From NCBI RefSeq assembly GCF_044324785.1, contig NZ_CP172127.1: DNA of 64,000 nucleotides; one strand, written 5' to 3'. The notes beneath the pieces were generated by a model. That model was not told the origin of the DNA, made no database searches, and saw only the letters and a program-made list of their open reading frames with translations. The translations under genes and the position numbers were made by a program. The stretch comes from Escherichia coli. Lineage in GTDB: Bacteria; Pseudomonadota; Gammaproteobacteria; Enterobacterales; Enterobacteriaceae. Below, in pieces: positions 2,411 to 50,130 of the stretch (within the stretch, counting starts at the first letter, position 1; each line of letters begins with the position of its first letter).

Positions 2411-4066
2411 ATGACTAATCTTCCCCACTGGTGGCAAAACGGCGTTATCTACCAGATTTATCCAAAGAGTTTTCAGGACACCACGGGTAGCGGCACCGGC
2501 GATTTACGTGGCGTTATCCAGCGCCTGGACTATCTGCATAAACTGGGCGTTGATGCCATCTGGCTAACCCCCTTTTATGTCTCTCCCCAGGTCGATAACG
2601 GTTACGACGTAGCGAACTATACGGCGATTGATCCCACCTACGGCACACTGGACGATTTTGACGAACTGGTGACACAGGCAAAATCTCGCGGGATTCGTAT
2701 CATTCTCGATATGGTGTTTAACCATACCTCTACCCAACATGCCTGGTTTCGTGAGGCGCTGAACAAAGCAAGCCCTTACCGCCAGTTTTATATCTGGCGC
2801 GATGGAGAACCAGAAACACCACCGAACAACTGGCGTTCAAAATTTGGCGGTAGCGCGTGGCGCTGGCATGCGGAAAGCGAACAGTACTATTTGCATCTCT
2901 TTGCACCAGAACAGGCGGATCTCAACTGGGAGAATCCAGCGGTACGCGCAGAGCTGAAAAAAGTCTGTGAGTTCTGGGCCGATCGTGGGGTCGACGGGTT
3001 GCGCCTGGATGTGGTGAATCTGATCTCCAAAGACCCGCGTTTCCCTGATGACCTGGATGGCGACGGGCGTCGCTTCTACACCGACGGGCCACGAGCACAC
3101 GAGTTTTTGCACGAGATGAACCGCGATGTGTTTACGCCGCGCGGGTTAATGACCGTAGGTGAAATGTCCTCCACCAGCCTTGAGCATTGCCAGCGATATG
3201 CGGCACTGACAGGCAGTGAATTGTCGATGACCTTTAATTTTCATCACCTGAAAGTCGATTATCCCGGTGGTGAAAAATGGACGCTGGCTAAACCTGACTT
3301 TGTGGCGTTGAAAACATTGTTCCGCCACTGGCAACAAGGAATGCACAACGTGGCATGGAATGCCTTGTTCTGGTGTAACCACGATCAGCCGCGCATTGTT
3401 TCTCGCTTTGGTGATGAAGGTGAATACCGCGTGCCTGCGGCAAAAATGCTGGCGATGGTGCTGCATGGCATGCAGGGAACGCCATATATCTACCAGGGCG
3501 AAGAGATTGGCATGACTAACCCACATTTCACGCGCATTACTGACTATCGCGACGTGGAGAGCCTCAATATGTTTGCCGAGCTGCGCAACGATGGGCGTGA
3601 TGCCGACGAGTTATTGGCAATCCTCGCCAGTAAATCCCGTGACAACAGTCGCACACCCATGCAATGGAGCAACGGCGATAATGCCGGGTTTACGGCTGGC
3701 GAACCGTGGATTGGCCTGGGCGATAACTATCAACAAATCAACGTAGAAGCAGCGCTGGCCGATGAGTCCTCGGTGTTTTACACCTACCAAAAGTTAATCG
3801 CACTGCGTAAGCAAGAAGCCGTCCTGACATGGGGCGATTACCAGGATCTGCTGCCAAACAGCCCTGTATTGTGGTGCTATCGCCGTGAGTGGAAGGGGCA
3901 AACCTTGCTGGTCATTGCCAACCTTAGCCGTGAGACCCAACCCTGGCAGCCAGGGAAAATGCTCGGCAACTGGCAGCTTGTGATGCATAACTACGAAGAA
4001 GCCTCACCACAACCCTGTGCCATGACTTTACGGCCTTTTGAGGCTGTCTGGTGGTTACAGAAGTAA
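2411..4066 (+). CDS. treC: Trehalose-6-phosphate hydrolase (GH13 alpha-glucosidase)
   Basis: 551 aa from internal ATG (MTNLPHWWQNGVIYQIYPKSF...), GH13 motifs (DGLRLDVV, FNHT); longer ORF-track start at 2264 overlaps treB and is rejected. Confidence 0.9.
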   Translation: MTNLPHWWQNGVIYQIYPKSFQDTTGSGTGDLRGVIQRLDYLHKLGVDAIWLTPFYVSPQVDNGYDVANYTAIDPTYGTLDDFDELVTQAKSRGIRIILDMVFNHTSTQHAWFREALNKASPYRQFYIWRDGEPETPPNNWRSKFGGSAWRWHAESEQYYLHLFAPEQADLNWENPAVRAELKKVCEFWADRGVDGLRLDVVNLISKDPRFPDDLDGDGRRFYTDGPRAHEFLHEMNRDVFTPRGLMTVGEMSSTSLEHCQRYAALTGSELSMTFNFHHLKVDYPGGEKWTLAKPDFVALKTLFRHWQQGMHNVAWNALFWCNHDQPRIVSRFGDEGEYRVPAAKMLAMVLHGMQGTPYIYQGEEIGMTNPHFTRITDYRDVESLNMFAELRNDGRDADELLAILASKSRDNSRTPMQWSNGDNAGFTAGEPWIGLGDNYQQINVEAALADESSVFYTYQKLIALRKQEAVLTWGDYQDLLPNSPVLWCYRREWKGQTLLVIANLSRETQPWQPGKMLGNWQLVMHNYEEASPQPCAMTLRPFEAVWWLQK

Positions 4067-11463: not shown

Positions 11464-12462
11464 ATGAAAACGTTAGGTGAATTTATTGTCGAAAAGCAGC
11501 ACGAGTTTTCTCATGCTACCGGTGAGCTCACTGCTTTGCTGTCGGCAATAAAACTGGGCGCCAAGATTATCCATCGCGATATCAACAAAGCAGGACTGGT
11601 TGATATCCTGGGTGCCAGCGGTGCTGAGAACGTGCAGGGCGAGGTTCAGCAGAAACTCGACTTGTTCGCTAATGAAAAACTGAAAGCCGCACTGAAAGCA
11701 CGCGATATCGTTGCGGGCATTGCCTCTGAAGAAGAAGATGAGATTGTCGTCTTTGAAGGCTGTGAACACGCAAAATACGTGGTGCTGATGGACCCCCTGG
11801 ATGGCTCGTCCAACATCGATGTTAACGTCTCTGTCGGTACCATTTTCTCCATCTACCGCCGCGTTACGCCTGTCGGCACGCCGGTAACGGAAGAAGATTT
11901 CCTCCAGCCTGGTAACAAACAGGTTGCGGCAGGTTACGTGGTATACGGCTCCTCTACCATGCTGGTTTACACCACCGGATGCGGTGTTCACGCCTTTACT
12001 TACGATCCTTCGCTCGGCGTTTTCTGCCTGTGCCAGGAACGGATGCGCTTCCCGGAGAAAGGCAAAACCTACTCCATCAACGAAGGAAACTACATTAAGT
12101 TTCCGAACGGGGTGAAGAAGTACATTAAATTCTGCCAGGAAGAAGATAAGTCCACCAACCGCCCTTATACCTCACGTTATATCGGTTCACTGGTCGCGGA
12201 TTTCCACCGTAACCTGCTGAAAGGCGGTATTTATCTCTACCCAAGCACCGCCAGCCACCCGGACGGTAAACTGCGTTTACTGTATGAGTGCAACCCGATG
12301 GCATTCCTGGCGGAACAAGCGGGCGGTAAAGCGAGCGATGGCAAAGAGCGTATTCTGGATATCATCCCGGAAACCCTGCACCAGCGCCGTTCGTTCTTTG
12401 TCGGCAACGACCATATGGTTGAAGATGTCGAACGCTTTATCCGTGAGTTCCCGGACGCGTAA
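11464..12462 (+). CDS. fbp: Fructose-1,6-bisphosphatase class I
   Basis: 332 aa from internal ATG ([15 protein letters not shown]...); upstream extension of ORF track rejected. Confidence 0.92.
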
Positions 12463-38329: not shown

Positions 38330-38968
38330 ATGCCCGGGCGCTTTGAACTAAAACCAACCCTGGAGAAAGTCTGGCACGCGCCGGACAATTTTCGCTTCAT
38401 GGACCCGCTGCCGCCGATGCATCGTCGGGGGATCATTATTGCCGCCATTGTATTGGTGGTCGGATTTCTGCTTCCATCTGATGATACGCCCAACGCGCCG
38501 GTGGTGACGCGTGAAGCGCAGTTAGATATTCAGTCGCAATCACAACCGCCGACAGAAGAACAGCTGCGGGCGCAATTAGTCACCCCACAAAATGATCCTG
38601 ATCAGGTGGCTCCGGTCGCTCCAGAACCTATACAGGAAGGCCAGCCAGAAGAGCAGCCGCAAACCACCCAAACGCAACCATTCCAGCCAGATAGCGGAAT
38701 TGATAATCAATGGCGCTCTTACCGTGTCGAACCCGGTAAAACGATGGCGCAGCTGTTCCGCGACCACGGACTGCCCGCTACCGATGTCTATGCAATGGCG
38801 CAGGTAGAAGGCGCGGGTAAGCCGCTGAGTAATTTGCAAAACGGGCAGATGGTGAAAATCCGCCAGAACGCCAGCGGCGTGGTGACGGGCTTAACCATTG
38901 ATACGGGGAATAATCAACAGGTCCTGTTTACCCGCCAGCCGGATGGCAGTTTTATTCGTGCGCGGTAG
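38330..38968 (+). CDS. ytfB: OapA/LysM-like cell-division-associated protein
   Basis: 212 aa from internal ATG ([23 protein letters not shown]...), membrane anchor, Pro/Gln-rich linker. Confidence 0.8.
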
Positions 38969-39599
38969 ATGAAGGATCAACCAAAAGCCAGCTAAGGAGC
39001 GTCTCTTTGATGACCTTACGTCTGGCTTCCAGTGCCTGGGGGGAAACCATACTGATATGATAAACTAGGCCAAGCGTATGCTGGTTGATCAAATAATATC
39101 CCCCAAGCGCAGCAATATTAATATTCACCTGCAATGGGTCGATATCTGGCTTAAAAATATTGTGTTTCTTCCCTTCATCCAATAAGGATTCCATTAACTG
39201 CAAGTGCGCATGGTTAATTTCTAAGAGACGCTGTGATTTTGCATAATGCACACCTTTACTTTGATTTTCACTATGCACAATTTTTAAAAACCAGGGGTTA
39301 GCAATATAATAATCCCATGTAAAATCAATAATTTTCTCAATGGCTTTTTGTGGCGGAAGATCTGAGAAATCAAGGGCCTTTTCTTTTTGTCGAATATCGT
39401 TCCAGGTATATTCCAGTACTTCAATAAATAAATTTTCTTTATTACCAAAGTGATGATAAACCGTCTGTTTACTACACCCCGCAGCCTTAACAATATTATC
39501 GACCCTGGCCCCTTCATAACCATATTCGGCAAATTCATTAACCGCGCATAACAGCAGCTTTTCCTTCAGGCTCTGTACGTTGCTGGTATCAAGATACAT
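38952..39599 (-). CDS. TetR/AcrR-family transcriptional regulator, divergent from the accessory operon (possibly the intact form of K-12 ytfA)
   Basis: 215 aa from ATG at 39599; N-terminal HTH ([23 protein letters not shown]); 3' end overlaps ytfB by about 17 nt. Confidence 0.8.
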
Positions 39600-39721
39600 A
39601 ACGCTTCCCCACGACCTCTTCAAGACAACTATCTTAACCCGATTAATTAGAAGCTCCAGTAAAAAGGATAAAAACTTGTACTTTCATCAAGTTATCAAAT
39701 GTCCTGTGATCACTATCGCAT

Positions 39722-39743
39722 ATCAACCAACCAGATGGTTGAT
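39722..39743. promoter_or_regulatory. Perfect inverted repeat ATCAACCA-N6-TGGTTGAT in divergent promoter region; candidate operator of the TetR regulator
   Basis: Verified against ORF-track translation of this region; a second repeat CTTGCG-N6-CGCAAG lies at about 39748-39765. Confidence 0.4.
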
Positions 39744-39809
39744 CTTTCTTGCGGCACGTCGCAAGCTAATTGTCACTTAGAAACAATATTCAAAAAAGAG
39801 AGCTATTGT

Positions 39810-40601
39810 ATGAAATCCACTCGTCCTGTTGCCGTGATTACCGGAGCCGCTCGTGGTATTGGAAAGGGCTGTGCGCTGGAGCTTGCTCGTGGCGGATTTA
39901 ACCTGCTGATTAACGATCGCCCCGATGATGACAGCGTAGAAAAATTACATGCCACGCAACAGGAATGTCTGGCAGAAGGTGTGGAAGTGATTTGCTTCCC
40001 TGCCGATGTCGGCGATCTCTCCTTGCATGAAGAGATGCTCGACGCGGCACAAAACCAGTGGGGACGTCTGGACTGCCTGCTCAACAACGCAGGCATTTCA
40101 GTGAAAAAACGCGGTGACCTTCTCGACCTCGAACCAGACAGCTTCGACCAAAATATTGCCATTAACACCCGCGCACCGTTCTTCCTCGCTCAGGCATTCA
40201 GTAAGCGCTTACTGGCACAGCCGAAACCGGAAGCAGAACTGCCGCACCGCTCGATTATTTTTGTCAGTTCCATCAACGCCATCATGCTGGCGATGAATCG
40301 CGGCGAATATACCATTGCCAAAACTGCCGTCTCTGCCGCTGCTCGTCTGTTTGCTGCTCGGCTTTGTAATGAACAAATTGGCGTTTATGAAGTGCGTCCT
40401 GGTCTCATCAAAACCGATATGACTATTCCGGCAACGGCCTATTACGACGAACTGATTGCCAAAGGTCTGGTGCCGTGGGGACGTTGGGGTTATCCGGCTG
40501 ATATTGCTTCCACTGTCCGCGCGATGGCGGAAGGTAAACTGATTTACACCTGTGGTCAGGCGGTTGCCATTGACGGCGGCTTAAGTATGCCGCGTTTCTG
40601 A
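39810..40601 (+). CDS. Short-chain dehydrogenase/reductase (classical SDR, FabG-like)
   Basis: 263 aa; TGAARGIGKG cofactor motif, NNAG, catalytic Y-x3-K (YTIAK); RBS AAAGAGAG upstream. Confidence 0.8.
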   Translation: MKSTRPVAVITGAARGIGKGCALELARGGFNLLINDRPDDDSVEKLHATQQECLAEGVEVICFPADVGDLSLHEEMLDAAQNQWGRLDCLLNNAGISVKKRGDLLDLEPDSFDQNIAINTRAPFFLAQAFSKRLLAQPKPEAELPHRSIIFVSSINAIMLAMNRGEYTIAKTAVSAAARLFAARLCNEQIGVYEVRPGLIKTDMTIPATAYYDELIAKGLVPWGRWGYPADIASTVRAMAEGKLIYTCGQAVAIDGGLSMPRF

Positions 40602-40610
40602 GGCTGAATC

Positions 40611-41453
40611 ATGAGAGATCTGTTACAACGCCCGGATTTATTCAGTATCAATACCGCGACACTGGGCTATAAAACGCCGCTTCCCGCCATTATTGATGCC
40701 TGCGCCGCACGCGGTATTGGCGCAATTGCCCCCTGGCGCAGGGAGTTGCAGGGTGAAGATCTCCAGCAAATCGCCCGCCAGCTTGCCGCCAGTAAGATGA
40801 ACGTTTCCGGTTTGTGCCGTAGCACTTACTACACCGCGCCGACACTGGCGGAACGCAAACTGGCGATTGATGATAACCGCCGGGCGCTGGACGACGCAGC
40901 GGTGCTTAACGCCGCCTGTTATATGCAGGTGGTTGGCGGGTTACCGCAGGGAACAAAAGATTTGTACGAAGCGCGGGAACAAGTAAAACAAGGGATTCGC
41001 CAGTTGCTGCCACATTCGAAAGATGTCGGCGTGCCAATTGCGCTGGAGCCGCTGCACCCGATGACTGCTGCCGACCGCTCTTGCCTGTGCACGTTACGTC
41101 AGGCGCTGGACTGGTGTGATGAACTCGATCCCGATGGTGAGTTTGGCCTCGGCGTAGCGGTAGATGTCTACCATGTCTGGTGGGACCCGGATCTCGCCAG
41201 CCAACTCCAGCGCGCCGGAAAACGCATCCTCGCGTTTCATGTTTCCGACTGGTTAGTACCAACCACCGATCTGGTCAATGACCGTGGAATGCCGGGAGAT
41301 GGCGTCATCAATATTCCGTCAATTCGTCGGCTGGTTGAAAACGCCGGATTTAATGGCGCTATTGAACTGGAAATATTCTCGCCGTACTGGTGGCAAAAAG
41401 ATATTAACAGCACGCTGGATATTAGCGTCGATCGCATCGCGCATTATTGCTAA
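40611..41453 (+). CDS. Xylose-isomerase-like TIM-barrel enzyme (sugar-phosphate isomerase/epimerase or dehydratase superfamily)
   Basis: 280 aa; conserved metal-ligand-like positions (LEPLHP, HVSDW, ELEIFS); starts 9 nt after SDR stop. Confidence 0.75.
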   Translation: MRDLLQRPDLFSINTATLGYKTPLPAIIDACAARGIGAIAPWRRELQGEDLQQIARQLAASKMNVSGLCRSTYYTAPTLAERKLAIDDNRRALDDAAVLNAACYMQVVGGLPQGTKDLYEAREQVKQGIRQLLPHSKDVGVPIALEPLHPMTAADRSCLCTLRQALDWCDELDPDGEFGLGVAVDVYHVWWDPDLASQLQRAGKRILAFHVSDWLVPTTDLVNDRGMPGDGVINIPSIRRLVENAGFNGAIELEIFSPYWWQKDINSTLDISVDRIAHYC

Positions 41454-41462
41454 GGAATGATT

Positions 41463-42239
41463 ATGAGTGACCAACCCGTTCTGTTCAGCAGAGCGGCGGC
41501 TTCCTGCCGTCTGACATTGAACCGTGAAGATAAATGTCATGCTATTAATGAAGAGATGATTGAATCTCTCGATCATTATTTAAATGAAATTGAAAACGAC
41601 ACCACATTACGATTAGTCGAATTAACGGCAACCGGCGATAAATTCTTTTGTGCGGGCGGCGATATTAAATCGTGGTCAGCCTATTCGCCATTAGATATGG
41701 GCAGAAAATGGATTAAACGCGGTAATGACGTTTTTAATCGCCTGCGCAACTTACCCCAATTAACCGTTGCAAATCTCAACGGTCATACCATCGGCGGTGG
41801 TATTGAACTTGCTTTGTGCTGCGATATTCGTATTGCCCGTCCCGGCGCGAAATTCTCTAACCCGGAAGTGATGCTCGGCATGGTGCCTGGCTGGATGGGC
41901 ATTGAACGTGTGCTTAATCAGGTCGGTCCGGTGGTCGGTCGCCAGATGCTGATGCTGGGTAAACGCCTGACGGCGCGGGAAGCTCAGGCGGCGAATTTAA
42001 TTGATGAAGTGGTAGAAAAAGAACAGGTGGAAAGCTGGATGGCGAACCAGTTAGCGCAGCTGGAAAAATGTGGTCCGGTGGCGCTCGCACATATCAAGCA
42101 ACTGATTCTGGCACTGGAAAATAAACATGCCGATTACCCGCACCAGCTACTGGCTGGATTAATGTCCGCCACTCAGGATTGCCAGCAGGCGACGCGCGCG
42201 TTTGCCGAAAAAAGTAGCGTGAGCTTCCACAATCAATAA
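41463..42239 (+). CDS. Enoyl-CoA hydratase/isomerase (crotonase fold)
   Basis: 258 aa; oxyanion-hole segments FCAGGDIKSW and NGHTIGGGIELALCCDIRIA; start taken at second ATG, 6 nt after AAGGA. Confidence 0.8.
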   Translation: MSDQPVLFSRAAASCRLTLNREDKCHAINEEMIESLDHYLNEIENDTTLRLVELTATGDKFFCAGGDIKSWSAYSPLDMGRKWIKRGNDVFNRLRNLPQLTVANLNGHTIGGGIELALCCDIRIARPGAKFSNPEVMLGMVPGWMGIERVLNQVGPVVGRQMLMLGKRLTAREAQAANLIDEVVEKEQVESWMANQLAQLEKCGPVALAHIKQLILALENKHADYPHQLLAGLMSATQDCQQATRAFAEKSSVSFHNQ

Positions 42240-42248
42240 GGAAATTGT

Positions 42249-43790
42249 ATGCGTAAGATAACAACCGCCGAGGCACTGGCGGCGCAAATTCAGGACGGCG
42301 CAACCATTGCCATTAGCGGTAACGGCGGCGGCATGGTGGAAGCTGACCATATTATGGCCGCCATTGAAGCGCGTTTCCTGCAAACCGGACACCCTCGCGA
42401 TCTGACATTGATCCACTCGCTGGGTATTGGCGATCGCGACAGCAAAGGCACTAACCGTTTTGCTCACGCCGAAATGCTCAAACGCATTATTGCCGGACAT
42501 TTTACCTGGTCGCCCAAGATGCAGGAACTGGTGAAAAGCAATGCTATTGAAGCCTACTGTTTCCCTGGTGGCGTGATTCAGGCGTTGCTACGGGAGATCG
42601 GTGCCGGACGTCCGGGGCTTTTTACCCACGTTGGGCTGGGATCGTTTGTTGATCCACGCAATGGCGGCGGTAAGTCGAATGAATGCACTACCGACGACCT
42701 GGTAGAACTGATTGAAATCGACGGTGAGACCAAACTTCGTTATCGCCCTTTCAAAGTGGATTACGCGATTTTGCGTGGCACTTATGCCGATCCACGAGGC
42801 AACGTTAGCCTCGAAGAAGAAGCGATTGATATGGATAGCTATTCGATGGCGCTGGCAGCACACAACAGCGGTGGCAAAGTGTTCGTACAGGTACGCGATG
42901 TGCTGGAAGCAGGTGCCATTGAACCACGCCGGGTTAAATTACCGGGGATTCTGGTTGATGGCATCGTTGAACACCGCGAACAGCCACAAACCTATCTTGG
43001 CAGTTACGACCTGACCATCAGCGGCCAACATCGCCGTCTGAGTTCTAACGACGCTATTGAGCTGGTTAGTCATCCGGTGCGTCGCCTGATTGCCCGTCGG
43101 GCAGCGCGGGAACTGGTGGCAGGCGCTTCAACCAACTTTGGCTTTGGTATTCCCGGCGGCATTCCAGGAGTAGCGCTGCGCGAAGGCGTGCCTTACCAAA
43201 GTTTATGGCTGAGCGTCGAGCAAGGCGTGCATAACGGTATGATGCTGGATGATGCGTTTTTCGGCTGCGCCCGCAACGCCGATGCCATTATTCCATCACT
43301 CGATCAATTTGAGTTCTACAGTGGTGGAGGGATCGATATCACCTTCCTCGGCATGGGAGAGATGGATCAGTACGGTAACGTCAACGTATCCCATCTCAAT
43401 GGCAATCTGATTGGCCCCGGCGGATTTCTCGAAATTGCGCAAAATGCCCGTAAAGTGGTGTTCTGCGGCACGTTCGACGCTAAAGGCAGCAAAATCGATA
43501 TAACGCCAGATGGCTTGCATATCGCCCAGTCAGGTCAAATCCCTAAACTGGTTACCCAGGTGGAAAAAATCACTTTTAGCGCCGCCTACGCACAGCAAAG
43601 TGGTCAGGAAGTGTTGTATATCACTGAGCGCGCAGTATTCCAGTTAACGGCAGAAGGCGTTGAATTAATTGAAATCGCGCCGGGTGTAGAGATTGAGCGC
43701 GACATTCTGCCGTTCATGGCTTTCCGTCCAATTATCAAGCACCCACGCCTGATGGAAAGTAGCCTGTTTACGCCGATGGAGGATGCATGA
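42249..43790 (+). CDS. Family-I CoA-transferase, fused alpha/beta subunits (YdiF / propionate-CoA-transferase-like)
   Basis: 513 aa; N-terminal ISGNGGG and later SGGGIDITFLGMGEMDQYGNVNVS segments typical of 3-oxoacid CoA-transferases. Confidence 0.75.
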   Translation: MRKITTAEALAAQIQDGATIAISGNGGGMVEADHIMAAIEARFLQTGHPRDLTLIHSLGIGDRDSKGTNRFAHAEMLKRIIAGHFTWSPKMQELVKSNAIEAYCFPGGVIQALLREIGAGRPGLFTHVGLGSFVDPRNGGGKSNECTTDDLVELIEIDGETKLRYRPFKVDYAILRGTYADPRGNVSLEEEAIDMDSYSMALAAHNSGGKVFVQVRDVLEAGAIEPRRVKLPGILVDGIVEHREQPQTYLGSYDLTISGQHRRLSSNDAIELVSHPVRRLIARRAARELVAGASTNFGFGIPGGIPGVALREGVPYQSLWLSVEQGVHNGMMLDDAFFGCARNADAIIPSLDQFEFYSGGGIDITFLGMGEMDQYGNVNVSHLNGNLIGPGGFLEIAQNARKVVFCGTFDAKGSKIDITPDGLHIAQSGQIPKLVTQVEKITFSAAYAQQSGQEVLYITERAVFQLTAEGVELIEIAPGVEIERDILPFMAFRPIIKHPRLMESSLFTPMEDA

Positions 43791-45859
43791 GTCAGCTTGA
43801 TGACACCATCCTTGATGCGCTGACGCACGTCACTTTCCCAAAGGGGTTTGTGTCAGCAGAGCCAACGTCAATTGTCACCGTTGAGGATGTTGATTACCCG
43901 ATCTGGCAAGTTGATGCGCTGGTCGTTGGTAGCGGCGCAGCAGGATTACGTGCGGCAGTTGAACTTAAACGCCGCCAGCAAAATGTGCTGATCGCCACCG
44001 CCGGGTTATATATGGGGACGTCGGCATGTTCTGGTTCCGATAAACAGACGTTGTTTACCGCCGCTACCGCGGGCAACGGCGACAACTTCGCCAAACTGGC
44101 AGAGGCACTTGCGAGCGGTGGGGCGATGGATCACGACACCGCTTATGTCGAAGCGGTAGGTTCTCTGCACACTCTTGGCGGGTTGCAATATCTTGGTCTG
44201 GAATTACCGGAAGATCGCTATGGCGCGATTCTTCGTTATCAAACCGACCATGACGAAGCCGGGCGTGCAACCTCGTGTGGGCCGCGTACCTCAAGGTTAA
44301 TGGTGAAAGTGCTGCTGGAAGAAGTACAGCGTCTTGCTATCCCAATGTTGACCAGTGCAACAGTGATTAAACTGCTGCATCAGCGTGACGAAAACGGCGA
44401 AGACCGCGTGGCGGGGGCTATCCTCGCGACCGGTCATCGCGCCCATAACCCATGGGGGCTGGCAATTGTGATTGCGCCCAATGTGGTACTGGCAACAGGA
44501 GGGCCTGGCGAGCTTTATCGCGACAGTGTGTACCCACACAAATGTTTCGGCTCGCTGGGTCTGGCGCTGGAGGAAGGTCTGACGCTAACGAATCTGACTG
44601 AAAGCCAGTTTGGTATAGGCACACCGCGCAGCACGTTTCCGTGGAATTTGTCCGGGACTTATGTACAGGTGATCCCATATATCTATTCCGTGGATGCTGA
44701 GGGTAACGAGTATAACTTCCTCGCGGATTACTATCGCACCACCCAGGAGCTGGCTTCAAACATTTTCCGTAAAGGCTATCAGTGGCCGTTCCACGCCACT
44801 CGGGTGATGGATTTTGGCTCCAGCTTGTTAGATATGGCAGTAGCGCAAGAGCAGCAATCAGGGCGTCAGGTATTTATGGATTTCAATCGCAATCCTGAAG
44901 CGGTGCCGGGTGACCTGCCCTTCTCATTAGATCGACTGGACGACGACGTTCGCGCGTATCTGGAAAATAACGACGCTCTGGCACCATCGCCCATCGAACG
45001 GCTGCAACGAATGAATCCGCTGTCTATCTCGCTGTATAAGATGCACGGTTACGATCTCACCACACAGCCATTGCAGTTTGCCATGAATAATCAGCATATG
45101 AATGGCGGCATTGAAGTCGATATCTGGGGACAAACATCTCTACCCGGTTGTTTTGCAGTGGGGGAAGTTGCTGGCACACACGGCGTCACCCGACCTGGCG
45201 GCGCGGCATTGAATGCCGGGCAGGTTTTTGCTGTTCGTCTGGCACGTTTTATTGGTTGCACGCAAAAGCGGAATATTGATGGAGATATAGCACAGCTGGC
45301 AGCTCCGGCACTGGCTTCTATAAGAGAGATCATTACTCAGGCGCACGATAACGGGACCGGGATGCCGTTGTCGGTTGTGAGAGAAAAAATTCAGGCACGA
45401 ATGTCTGACCATGCGGGATTTATTTGTCATGCCGATAAAGTCCGACGCGCCACTCGTGATGCCCTGCTATTGAACGAATTTGTCCAACGGCATGGATTGG
45501 CAATCAAACATGTGGGTGAAGTTTCCGAGCTGTTTATGTGGCGGCATATGGCGCTGACTTCTGCCGCGGTATTAACACAATTAACGCATTATATTGATGC
45601 TGGTGGCGGCAGTCGTGGGGCGCGGATGGTTATTGATCCACAAGGCAAATGCCTACCACAAACTCGTCGCGGCGTAAAAGAAGAATGGCGTTTTCGCTCT
45701 GAACTCGCTGAAGATAAAAATCACAAATTAACAATTCAATATTCGCAAGGTTCTTTTATTACCGAAGTAAAGTCTTTACGTATGCAACCGTGTATTAACG
45801 GTATTTACTTTGAAAAAAACTGGCCAGACTTTTTAAAGGGAGACATTTACACACAATAA
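43787..45859 (+). CDS. FAD-binding oxidoreductase of the fumarate-reductase/succinate-dehydrogenase flavoprotein superfamily
   Basis: 690 aa; dinucleotide fold VVGSGAAGLRAA, later GEVAGTHGVTRPGGAALNAGQVFAVRLARF; ATGA overlap with upstream gene. Confidence 0.75.
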   Translation: MSQLDDTILDALTHVTFPKGFVSAEPTSIVTVEDVDYPIWQVDALVVGSGAAGLRAAVELKRRQQNVLIATAGLYMGTSACSGSDKQTLFTAATAGNGDNFAKLAEALASGGAMDHDTAYVEAVGSLHTLGGLQYLGLELPEDRYGAILRYQTDHDEAGRATSCGPRTSRLMVKVLLEEVQRLAIPMLTSATVIKLLHQRDENGEDRVAGAILATGHRAHNPWGLAIVIAPNVVLATGGPGELYRDSVYPHKCFGSLGLALEEGLTLTNLTESQFGIGTPRSTFPWNLSGTYVQVIPYIYSVDAEGNEYNFLADYYRTTQELASNIFRKGYQWPFHATRVMDFGSSLLDMAVAQEQQSGRQVFMDFNRNPEAVPGDLPFSLDRLDDDVRAYLENNDALAPSPIERLQRMNPLSISLYKMHGYDLTTQPLQFAMNNQHMNGGIEVDIWGQTSLPGCFAVGEVAGTHGVTRPGGAALNAGQVFAVRLARFIGCTQKRNIDGDIAQLAAPALASIREIITQAHDNGTGMPLSVVREKIQARMSDHAGFICHADKVRRATRDALLLNEFVQRHGLAIKHVGEVSELFMWRHMALTSAAVLTQLTHYIDAGGGSRGARMVIDPQGKCLPQTRRGVKEEWRFRSELAEDKNHKLTIQYSQGSFITEVKSLRMQPCINGIYFEKNWPDFLKGDIYTQ

Positions 45860-45951
45860 TTTTCAATATTTCCTCTGTACCTGATTTTTATTGCCTATTA
45901 CATGGAAATACCAACAACCAGGGTTTATTAATATAATTAAAAGGTTTAAAA

Positions 45952-47229
45952 ATGAATAAAATAAAGAATTATCGATGGCATATGATTGCCCTCGTATGCT
46001 TTATCACTGTAATCAATTATCTGGACAGAACGGCGTTAGGTATTGCGGCTCCAACGATTATGGAGACAACCGGAATAACTAAAGAGCAATATTCATGGAT
46101 TGTCAGTGCATTCCAGTTGGCCTATACATTAGGGCAACCGGTAATGGGCTTCTTTATTGATACCGTGGGTCTGAAGTTAAGTTTTGCGATATGTGCCGCA
46201 ATTTGGGGCCTGGCGACAATGGGCCATGCACTAACCGGAACGTGGTCTGGTCTGGCATTTATGCGCGCCCTGATGGGTTTCAGCGAAGCGTCGGCAATTC
46301 CGGCGGGTGTAAAAACCGCATCAACATGGTTCCCGGCAAAAGAGCGTGGCGTGGCGACAGGTGTTTTCAATATGGGCACCTCACTCGGCGCGATGCTTGC
46401 TCCACCGTTGATTGCCTGGTGCATTATGTTTCATAGCTGGCAATTTGCGTTTATTGTTTCAGGTAGCCTTGCTTTGCTCGCGGCTTTATTTTGGTTCTTT
46501 TGTTATAAAGATCCGAAAGATGCCAAACGCCTTTCTGATGAAGAGCGCCACTATATTGAATCAGGGCAAGAACAGCATCTTAAAACAGATAAGAAAGAAA
46601 AAACGTCAATCAAGCATATCCTCAGCCAACGTAATTTCTGGGGGATTGGCATCGCGCGTTTTCTCGCAGACCCGGCATGGGGAACCATTAACTTCTGGGT
46701 GCCGATTTTCTTCGTCGAAACGCTGCATTTTAGCCTGAAAGAAATTGCCATGTTCGTCTGGCTGCCTTTCCTGCTGGGCGATCTCGGCTGTTTAGCCAGT
46801 GGTTTTGTCGCGAAGTTCTTCCACGATCGCGGCGTGAGTTTAATTAACTCACGAAGAATTACCTTCACTATTGCAGCCGTCATTATGATGACGATTGGCC
46901 TGGTGAGTATTGTCGAAAATCCCTACATTGCCGTATTACTGATTAGTATTGGCGCGTTCTCGCATCAATGTCTTTCTACTGTAGCAGCAACTCTGGGTGG
47001 CGATCTGTTCAAAAAAGACGAAGTAGCTACCGCAGTGGGTATGGCAGGAGCCTGTGCGTGGAGCGGTCAGTTGATTTTCAACCTGTTCATCGGGGCATTC
47101 GTTCACATTATCGGCTTCGCGCCGTTCTTTATTGCCCTGGCTTTCTTTGACATTATTGGTGCTATTGCGTTGTGGACGCTTATCAAAGTTAAAGATGAAG
47201 AACCGCAAGTACAGCTAGCTACCCATTAA
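45952..47229 (+). CDS. MFS transporter, anion:cation symporter (ACS) family, ExuT/DgoT-like
   Basis: 425 aa; N-terminus NYRWHMIALVCFITVINYLDRTALGIAAPTIME and FPAKERG loop resemble hexuronate/aldonate transporters. Confidence 0.85.
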   Translation: MNKIKNYRWHMIALVCFITVINYLDRTALGIAAPTIMETTGITKEQYSWIVSAFQLAYTLGQPVMGFFIDTVGLKLSFAICAAIWGLATMGHALTGTWSGLAFMRALMGFSEASAIPAGVKTASTWFPAKERGVATGVFNMGTSLGAMLAPPLIAWCIMFHSWQFAFIVSGSLALLAALFWFFCYKDPKDAKRLSDEERHYIESGQEQHLKTDKKEKTSIKHILSQRNFWGIGIARFLADPAWGTINFWVPIFFVETLHFSLKEIAMFVWLPFLLGDLGCLASGFVAKFFHDRGVSLINSRRITFTIAAVIMMTIGLVSIVENPYIAVLLISIGAFSHQCLSTVAATLGGDLFKKDEVATAVGMAGACAWSGQLIFNLFIGAFVHIIGFAPFFIALAFFDIIGAIALWTLIKVKDEEPQVQLATH

Positions 47230-47242
47230 TTATTTTAAATAA

Positions 47243-47272
47243 AAACGCTATAATTGAGGTTATGGCGTTTTT
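47243..47272 (+). terminator. Probable rho-independent terminator after the MFS transporter gene
   Basis: AAACGCTATAA...TTATGGCGTTT stem (one G-U pair) followed by T-run. Confidence 0.4.
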
Positions 47273-47499
47273 AAAGAAGCTTGAGTTATCGAACCTCGCT
47301 TACCAACGCGTTGTCAATCATATCCCCCCTCCCTGCTGCATCGTTATATCCACAATGAGCGATTTTTGATATTAATATCTTTCACCATCCGCTATTTTCA
47401 CTACTTCAGAAAACAAACTTATTTTTATTAATATCGATTCTTTATTCTGTAAACATTCAGCTGAGATATTTATAAAAACATTAAACAGGCAACGATACA

Positions 47500-48294: not shown

Positions 48295-48317
48295 TACCTG
48301 ACGAAAAATAGAAAGCA

Positions 48318-48345
48318 AAACGCCGACCACTGGTCGGCGTTTTTA
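48318..48345. terminator. Bidirectional terminator between yjfZ and rplI
   Basis: ACGCCGACC-ACTG-GTCGGCGT followed by TTTT. Confidence 0.55.
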
Positions 48346-49822: not shown

Positions 49823-50130
49823 TTATTCAGCCTCCTGTCTGGGTCAGCCGAATCCCGGGGAGGCAAGGAACGTGTTAAAGGTCGGCTGAAAAATGACGCG
49901 TTATAGTACTGACATACCCCGCTAAACTCAAGGCCAGCCGACAAATAAATCTCATCTTTCACCAAATCGTACTAACACACTGATTTGAAGTTCATCACAC
50001 ATCATCATGGTGTTTTTTTGAACAACTGCATCAGAAATGGTCACCATCAACTTCTTTATCATTGATTAAAATTAAATCAGAAGATCATCACAAAGGAGAG
50101 CACACAAAGTCAGCCGTCGAGGAGGTATCT

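Follow-up and report, generated by a model that had tools for sequence, protein, structure and literature searches.

A probable TetR-family operator and a CRP site at a single predicted promoter of a CoA-dependent operon in Escherichia coli

Background

TetR-family repressors of catabolic and CoA-dependent operons, such as KstR and KstR2, PaaR, and the FadR protein of Bacillus, bind palindromic operators of 14-16 bp that lie next to divergently oriented targets, and some of these proteins, for example, KstR2, Bacillus FadR and PaaR, sense acyl-CoAs. In class I promoters of the lac type, CRP is centred at -61.5, the core promoter is weak, and a specific repressor is part of the arrangement. A third mode of regulation is represented by the IR1 site of QacR, which is 28 bp long, and by the CprB operators, where two TetR dimers sit on one long dyad.

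Here we analyze the spacer between the TetR-family gene ytfA and a divergent operon within a 64,000-nucleotide stretch of the Escherichia coli chromosome (hereafter, the window). YtfA resembles the KstR/PaaR/FadR type of regulators in that it combines an N-terminal TetR helix-turn-helix with an all-helical effector domain, that its putative operator is a short dyad next to the divergent target, and that the target operon uses CoA thioesters. Unlike these regulators, YtfA falls below the cut-off of every curated NCBIfam family (best scores of 47 bits against cut-offs of 200-250), and its putative operator lies away from the predicted promoter of its own gene; 'KstR2' is the automatic name of the YtfA orthologue in some Salmonella records. 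The operon promoter is similar to the lac type, with CRP at a predicted -61.5, a poor -10 element, and a pathway-specific repressor as the second condition. However, the YtfA site would lie between CRP and the -35 element (-52 to -31), whereas a lac-type repressor site is downstream of the start, which, in our case, is a predicted one, and YtfA would get in the way of sigma region 4 and of the alpha C-terminal domain instead of acting at or after the start. As with QacR and CprB, the putative operator, a 22-bp near-palindrome with two nested registers, exceeds the length of a site for one dimer; in contrast to those systems, a 16-bp unit alone seems to suffice in several alphaproteobacterial relatives. 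The closest solved relative, PDB 3NPI (YtfA residues 14-207, E = 3e-16), is a structural-genomics protein named only TetR family regulatory protein and, as such, is of no help with the mechanism of YtfA.

Results

The locus and its distribution

The 210-bp spacer (positions 39600-39809) separates the ATG of ytfA, read leftwards from 39599, from the ATG of the first operon gene at 39810, which bears out the view of an earlier note that this is a divergent regulatory region, with a TetR-family gene on one side and an operon on the other. The genes are as follows.

38952-39599, minus strand: full-length ytfA, TetR-family regulator, 215 aa including the stop codon (from the list of open reading frames)
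39810-47229, plus strand: target operon of six genes, with the gene order kept in all orthologous loci
39810-40601, plus strand: operon gene 1, SDR
40611-41453, plus strand: operon gene 2, xylose-isomerase-like TIM barrel
41463-42239, plus strand: operon gene 3, enoyl-CoA hydratase
42249-43790, plus strand: operon gene 4, fused CoA-transferase
43787-45859, plus strand: operon gene 5, fumarate-reductase-like flavoprotein, 690 aa
45952-47229, plus strand: operon gene 6, MFS transporter

The region 38900-40700 is 99.7% identical to that of strain N3, where the RefSeq name for the ytfA open reading frame is 'TetR/AcrR family transcriptional regulator'. In agreement with this name, YtfA contains an N-terminal TetR-type helix-turn-helix (Pfam TetR_N, PF00440, residues 19-61, E = 3e-14) followed by an all-helical C-terminal effector/dimerisation domain (TetR_C_29, PF17938, residues 83-200, E = 1e-29). 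By enzyme annotation, the pathway encoded in the operon is based on CoA thioesters. NCBIfam yields generic names only for the operon proteins, with the exception of the SDR, which scores 421 bits against the curated cut-off of 250 for NF009386 ('3-ketoacyl-ACP reductase'), an assignment that does not pin down the substrate. Searches of the PDB gave no match at 1e-10 for the flavoprotein and, for the TIM-barrel protein, solely uncharacterised 'sugar isomerase' entries that are of no help with the substrate either. No functional study of either YtfA or the operon came up in literature searches with ytfA, the operator string and ETEC_4555-4558; the string CAACCA..TGGTTG occurs in no searchable paper in this context, the one paper that contains it being an unrelated zebrafish study. 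The CRP site discussed below has been published already, and the putative YtfA operator, the function of the regulator and the operon are described in no searchable paper.

The locus, at 80% or more of the query, is carried by 3139 of the 5426 complete E. coli genomes (58%). K-12-like genomes retain a ytfA remnant that lacks the N-terminus and adjoins yjfZ, the spacer and the six-gene operon being deleted (window 39355-47499, compared with locus L095). A divergent E. coli allele, that of isolate ECCNB12-2 (87% identical), has three TRAP transporter genes in place of the MFS gene at the operon end (L002 15997-18841 compared with window 45952-47229), a swap that suggests a carboxylate substrate. 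The same isolate has two additional hypothetical genes between ytfE and cycA (L002 3073-5756). Beyond the operon, between the converging genes yjfZ and rplI, the window contains a perfect inverted repeat with 13-nt arms, AAAACGCCGACCACTGGTCGGCGTTTT (48317-48343), which looks like a bidirectional intrinsic terminator.

Palindromes in the spacer

The earlier note had pointed out three palindromes in the spacer, two of them as candidate operators of the TetR-family regulator. All three are located exactly where it had placed them.

39706-39713, no strand: GTGATCAC
39722-39743, no strand: IR1, ATCAACCA-N6-TGGTTGAT, probable YtfA operator, register a, centre 39732.5
39748-39765, no strand: IR2, CTTGCG-N6-CGCAAG, allele-specific palindrome, left arm in the promoter spacer, right arm over the predicted -10

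IR1, with its 8-nt arms and 6-nt spacer, is a short dyad in the region adjoining the regulator gene, and it is separated by 4 bp from IR2; both are perfect palindromes in the window allele. As a test of chance, we produced 5000 dinucleotide shuffles of the 210-bp spacer and counted perfect inverted repeats with spacers of up to 12 nt. Repeats with arms of at least 8 nt, the class of IR1, were present in 3.4% of the shuffles, and those with arms of at least 6 nt, the class of IR2, in 43%; judged by these frequencies only, IR1 is mildly unusual, in contrast to IR2.

Comparison across alleles and lineages is far more telling. The spacer was aligned among six E. coli alleles, among eight lineages that include E. 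whittamii, E. albertii, Klebsiella spallanzanii and Entomohabitans (alignment A2), and among twelve sequences that include Salmonella, Leminorella, and five metagenomic or Salmonella orthologues in which the regulator is 58-67% identical (alignment A4); the arrangement of regulator, SDR, TIM-barrel protein, hydratase and CoA-transferase is common to all aligned loci. In A2, IR1 is invariant at 19 of the 22 positions, and the core 39724-39744 at 20 of the 21, counts that, the lineages being mutually related, overstate the number of independent observations. The same alignment shows no invariant position among the six of the IR2 left arm, one of six in its loop, three of six in its right arm, and four of 42 in the 42 bp downstream. 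The segments AACCAAC (39725-39731), GGTTG (39737-39741) and TC (39743-39744) are invariant in all 12 sequences of A4, with TetR identity down to 58%. Within the species, the 34-mer of IR1 has two variants that differ by a C or T in its spacer, and these occur in 1516 and 1263 complete E. coli genomes, respectively; the IR2 34-mer of the window allele occurs in 1301 of the 3139 locus-carrying ones (~41%).

Judging from these alignments, IR2 is an allele-specific coincidence, not a conserved element, and it is not a conserved dyad related to the site of the regulator. Its right arm, CGCAAG, is constrained because it overlaps the predicted -10 element (see below), whereas the left arm falls in unconstrained promoter spacer.

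Several other repeats were considered and set aside. A further 6-nt-arm repeat, AACTTG-N9-CAAGTT (39673-39693), is not conserved across the aligned alleles and lineages. Inspection by eye gave no match of IR1 to FNR-type (TTGAT-N4-ATCAA) or GntR/ExuR-type (TGGT..ACCA) sites, the half-site order or the spacing being wrong. Far from the spacer, in what reads by eye as the fbp coding sequence, there is an inverted repeat with 9-nt arms, GATATCAAC-N12-GTTGATATC (11578-11607), with half-sites resembling those of the putative operator (ATCAAC/GTTGAT); its spacing is different, and we judge it a coincidence.

A CRP site includes one of the palindromes

The shortest of the three palindromes belongs to a longer element.

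39705-39720, no strand: CRP site TGTGATCACTATCGCA, centre 39712.5, includes GTGATCAC as its left half

This sequence differs from TGTGA-N6-TCACA by one mismatch, and only two such matches exist in the 64 kb of the window. In the CRP ChIP-seq study of the enterotoxigenic strain ETEC H10407 (Haycocks et al. 2015; PMC4287617), the identical 16-mer is the motif under the peak ETEC_4557/ytfA, with a FAT value of 4, the same as for the galP and mlc peaks (PMC4287617). The locus is confirmed as the same, the H10407 spacer being 99% identical to that of the window, and the published data thus establish CRP occupancy of this site in vivo (PMC4287617). The peak coordinates in Table 1 and S3 of PMC4287617 are 190-197 bp lower than those of RefSeq NC_017633.1, as checked at two sites, that of TGTGATCACTATCGCA and that of yjfY/rpsF; because of this shift, the peak centre falls on the CRP site, and any reuse of the table calls for coordinate correction. 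Besides TGTGATCACTATCGCA, the window contains a single near-consensus CRP match, TTTGAAGTTCATCACA at 49984-49999, the reverse complement of which, TGTGATGAACTTCAAA, is the yjfY/rpsF CRP ChIP-seq site (PMC4287617).

The placement of the CRP site is conserved: a CRP-like site with 0-2 mismatches is found 21-22 bp from the operator centre in 15 of 15 lineages. Its half-sites vary yet keep the match, for example, TGTGATTCAACTCACA in Leminorella, and GTGATCAC is replaced by GTGATCGC or GTGATCAT in several lineages, with the loss of palindromy. Accordingly, GTGATCAC is not an operator but one half of the site at which ChIP-seq had already detected CRP.

Two GATC (Dam) sites, one within the CRP site (39708-39711) and one at the boundary of the operator and the -35 element (39741-39744), are 33 bp apart. 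The latter is kept in 14 of the 15 lineages, and the former in the closer lineages; protein occupancy could leave both undermethylated.

Promoters and spacing

A scan with a strict sigma-70 consensus detected no promoter in the region. The elements below were predicted by a position weight matrix (PWM) scan combined with conservation.

39631-39636, minus strand: candidate -10 of the ytfA promoter, TAAGAT, from the PWM scan and conserved columns in A4
39739-39744, plus strand: predicted -35 of the operon promoter, TTGATC, first five bases within the right arm of the putative operator
39762-39767, plus strand: predicted weak -10 of the operon promoter, CAAGCT, A39763 (-11 A) and T39767 (-7 T) invariant in 12 (A4)
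39774-39775, plus strand: predicted transcription start, CA dinucleotide invariant in A2, 34-48 nt leader

The -35 element is TTGATC in 14 of the 15 lineages and TTGTTC in the remaining one, always 17 bp from the -10. The predicted -10 of the window allele, CAAGCT, matches the consensus at 2 of 6 positions only, and the other lineages have CATTTT, CATCTT, CATCGT, CATGTT or TAAGTT. With the predicted start as the reference, the same layout is found in all 15 lineages, namely, CRP (-61.5 or -60.5), the operator (approximately from -52 to -31), TTGATC, 17 bp, and [C/T]A[A/T]nnT. The class I spacing, with the CRP centre at -61.5, derives from the predicted -10 and start; an alternative -10, AACAAT (39782-39787), which is less well conserved, would put CRP near -81.5. 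A literature search found no mapped start, crp-mutant expression data or H10407 start-site data set.

The candidate -10 of ytfA lies 32-39 nt upstream of the regulator ATG, with the putative operator about 100 bp further upstream; it is TATGAT in other close lineages and TATAGT, following TGn, in the 58-67% group. The start of ytfA transcription is predicted at ~39624. Another minus-strand promoter, which pairs a -35 located in the IR1 left arm (TTGATA) with the -10 GACATT, scores well in E. coli and was rejected, the -10 not being conserved (GGCATT in E. albertii).

Across the 15 lineages, the operator is 73-87 bp from the operon ATG, whereas anything from 124 to 344 bp separates it from the TetR ATG, with an insertion of ~213 bp in Entomohabitans. 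Because the distance is fixed with respect to the operon and variable with respect to the regulator, the operator appears to be tied to the operon promoter, and autoregulation is not supported. A pair of the TetR/TetA style, where the operator covers both promoters, does not match this arrangement, in which both promoters are predicted. In Entomohabitans teleogrylli, the spacer is 423 bp (L012 3578-4000) as opposed to ~210 bp, and the additional ~213 bp are located between the regulator start and the block of CRP site and operator.

These findings bear directly on the proposal that a single TetR regulator exerts cooperative or dual control through adjacent operators, namely, IR1 and IR2 and perhaps GTGATCAC as well. 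In favour of the proposal, the two perfect palindromes are 4 bp apart in the window allele, and a real second copy of the motif does exist in one metagenomic orthologue (L093). That copy, however, is elsewhere. IR2 itself has no sequence in common with IR1, its left arm, with 0 of 6 positions invariant, differs in most lineages, a 6-nt-arm repeat is found in 43% of the shuffles, and the allele is present in ~41% of the locus-carrying E. coli genomes; moreover, GTGATCAC is accounted for by the CRP site, and dual control of regulator and operon is at odds with both the unconserved distance between the operator and the TetR gene and the conserved -10 candidate of that gene some 100 bp away. We regard adjacent operators as highly improbable. 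The second site in L093, CCAACCGAATGGTTGG, has CCAAC-N6-GTTGG half-sites and has its centre 41 bp ahead of the operon ATG, on the downstream side of the predicted -10; it is additional to the operator at the conserved position. From the sequences compared, promoter versions with two candidate operators exist, but not in E. coli, nor at the position of IR2.

The conserved palindrome travels with the regulator

Scanning a single genome for each species, we identified twelve full-length YtfA homologues with 34-40% identity, mostly from Alphaproteobacteria. The 4 kb around each of these 12 distant homologues contain no gene for any of the operon enzymes; in three annotated loci (L015, L016 and L018), the neighbours are binding-protein genes of the SsuA/TauA type and permease genes, that is, those of an ABC transporter. 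The motif CAAC-N6-GTTG, which is exact in 15 of 15 operon-linked lineages, with its centre 73-87 bp from the operon ATG, is nevertheless present, with at most one mismatch, upstream of nine of the 12 homologues (six exact), versus six of 58 distant TetR loci (none exact). Directly upstream of start codons in the homologue loci, we find CTATCAACCAACCAAATGGTTGGATAG (Belnapia, reverse complement), TCAACTATTTGGTTGA (Oceanibaculum) and GATCAAACATTCGGTTGATC, sites that are similar to TCAACCAAATGGTTGA. Thus, the motif of IR1 accompanies orthologues and homologues of the regulator in different taxa, irrespective of the genes nearby.

The proteins show a matching pattern. The DNA-binding region of YtfA, residues 10-60, is 53-61% identical to that of the motif-bearing alphaproteobacterial homologues, compared with 27-33% for the remainder of the protein, and a 12-residue stretch is identical in the motif-bearing homologues, whereas two homologues without the motif (L013 and L023) have KR[ML][IL]YHHF. 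In one of the latter, from an Albidovulum MAG (L013, ~3840-3860), CAAC-N6-GTTG is absent, but an everted palindrome, GTTGATCAAC, is found upstream, and the recognition helix reads NKRMIYHHF as against NKQLVYHHF; in this case, the recognition helix and the operator may have changed together.

Because the regulator homologue is the sole element common to all motif-bearing loci, IR1 is most likely the operator of YtfA, and together with its near-invariance, this co-occurrence makes the corresponding part of the earlier proposal very probable. Could IR1 be bound, instead, by some other transcription factor, with YtfA acting elsewhere? The link between YtfA and IR1 comes from sequence comparison, and the conservation of the right arm may stem, in part, from its role as the -35 hexamer of the promoter, which leaves some room for such a factor. 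It would have to be reconciled, however, with the observations that the TetR homologue is the only gene shared by the enteric and the motif-bearing alphaproteobacterial loci, that homologues with an altered recognition helix lack the motif, and that no other motif-like site was found in the E. coli spacer. Involvement of a different factor therefore seems improbable, if somewhat less so than adjacent operators.

Another possibility is that IR1 is not a protein-binding DNA site at all but rather an RNA hairpin, that is, a terminator, an attenuator or a 5' leader structure. A terminator scan did flag IR1, with an 8-bp stem followed by CTTTCTTGCG, and the predicted folds, at -9 kcal/mol for the plus strand and -12.4 kcal/mol for the minus strand, have z-scores of -2.8 and -3.2, respectively. 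An intrinsic terminator or attenuator has a G+C-rich stem and an uninterrupted U tract and lies downstream of a transcribed unit, whereas in IR1, 3 of the 8 stem pairs are G-C, the T tract is interrupted (tail CUUUCUUG), the site is upstream of the predicted operon start, and no plus-strand gene ends nearby. Furthermore, the loop is conserved as much as the stem, with no compensatory changes, the same sequence is found beside TetR homologues in unrelated gene contexts, and a search of Rfam at E <= 1 over 39450-39950 returned no match. A role of IR1 as an RNA hairpin is the least probable of the explanations that we considered.

Two registers of the dyad

The operator of YtfA, which we take IR1 most likely to be, can be read in two overlapping registers, the palindrome listed above (register a) and a second, shorter unit.

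39727-39742, no strand: register b unit nCAAC-N6-GTTGn (cCAACCAGATGGTTGA), centre 39734.5, overlapping IR1, exact in 15 of 15 operon-linked lineages

Among these lineages, register a (centre 39732.5) retains 7-10 of 11 complementary pairs, with 10 of 11 in the common T variant ATCAACCAaCTAGaTGGTTGAT, and register b retains 5-7 of 8. Four alphaproteobacterial lineages have register b alone, register a being reduced to 2-5 of 11 pairs, which is about random; another sequence stands in place of the outer ATC of the IR1 left arm in the 58-67% group, where the element reads TTAACCAAC or TAAACCAAC. Given this retention of register b alone and the loss of the outer ATC, the universal unit appears to be the 16-bp register b, to which ATCAAC is added on the side of the regulator gene in the enteric sequences, Belnapia and Tistrella.

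It is tempting to consider a composite operator, on which two YtfA dimers would be bound in overlapping registers a and b, in the manner of QacR and CprB. Both dyads, 2 bp apart, score well in the enteric lineages (7-10 of 11 pairs for a and 5-7 of 8 for b), the invariance extends leftwards past the 16-bp unit to the AA at 39725-39726, and the ATCAAC on the TetR-gene side is common to Escherichia, Belnapia and Tistrella. Four alphaproteobacterial lineages, on the other hand, have the 16-bp unit only, the partner half-site for the shifted dimer (GATGG, 39734-39738) matches poorly, and the repetitive CAACCAAC yields a second dyad automatically; stoichiometry, in any case, is beyond what sequence can tell. 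On balance, we view the binding of two dimers as a tentative possibility, and an unlikely one.

Discussion

The observations presented here converge on a comparatively simple reading of the spacer, which we consider probable: a single promoter, that of the operon, is served by one operator for a repressor and one site for an activator. The earlier interpretation stands with respect to the presence of one operator in a divergent spacer; the second operator and dual control do not stand, and the promoter elements and catabolite control had been overlooked. The three palindromes picked by eye thus come down to, in all likelihood, one operator, half of a CRP site, and noise, and footprinting across lineages sufficed to sort them.

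Under the mechanism that we propose, a YtfA dimer, or possibly two, would bind at 39722-39744 and cover the -35 element TTGATC along with the space in which the alpha C-terminal domain and CRP make contact, and such occlusion would keep the six-gene CoA-dependent catabolic operon off. CRP-cAMP, bound at TGTGATCACTATCGCA, at approximately -61.5 in class I geometry, would recruit RNA polymerase to the weak core promoter; it is because of the weak -10, CAAGCT, that CRP is expected to be needed. The operon would then be on only when a preferred sugar is absent and YtfA is released by an inducer, probably either the carboxylate that is transported or a CoA thioester derived from it. A CoA ester is a reasonable candidate because the pathway proceeds through CoA thioesters and because acyl-CoAs are sensed by some TetR relatives. 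The regulator gene, with its own predicted promoter ~100 bp away, is probably outside the control of the operator.

A more elaborate scenario, which we advance as speculation and deem unlikely, is that the operator is a conserved, asymmetric composite, made up of the 16-bp unit and the extra ATCAAC half-site and bound cooperatively by two YtfA dimers, and that this pairing of helix-turn-helix and operator has persisted in Alphaproteobacteria and Enterobacteriaceae alike, with both the effector domain and the target genes exchanged along the way. The exchange of targets, an ABC transporter in one group and a CoA-dependent operon in the other, would be part of the same scenario and is conjectured with the same reserve. 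If this is true, the helix-turn-helix-operator pair could be used to find the inducer and, hence, the substrate of an orphan pathway that 58% of the complete E. coli genomes (3139 of 5426) encode.

The regulatory wiring of the operon is ordinary, a TetR operator at a catabolite-controlled promoter, with a regulator that is so far unstudied. The six-gene operon itself is largely unstudied because it is deleted in K-12. The operator of 16-22 bp, the CRP site validated by ChIP-seq and the predicted promoter provide practical handles on this pathway. A reporter built on the control region should respond only in the absence of glucose and in the presence of the inducer, and the purified regulator could be used for ligand screening.
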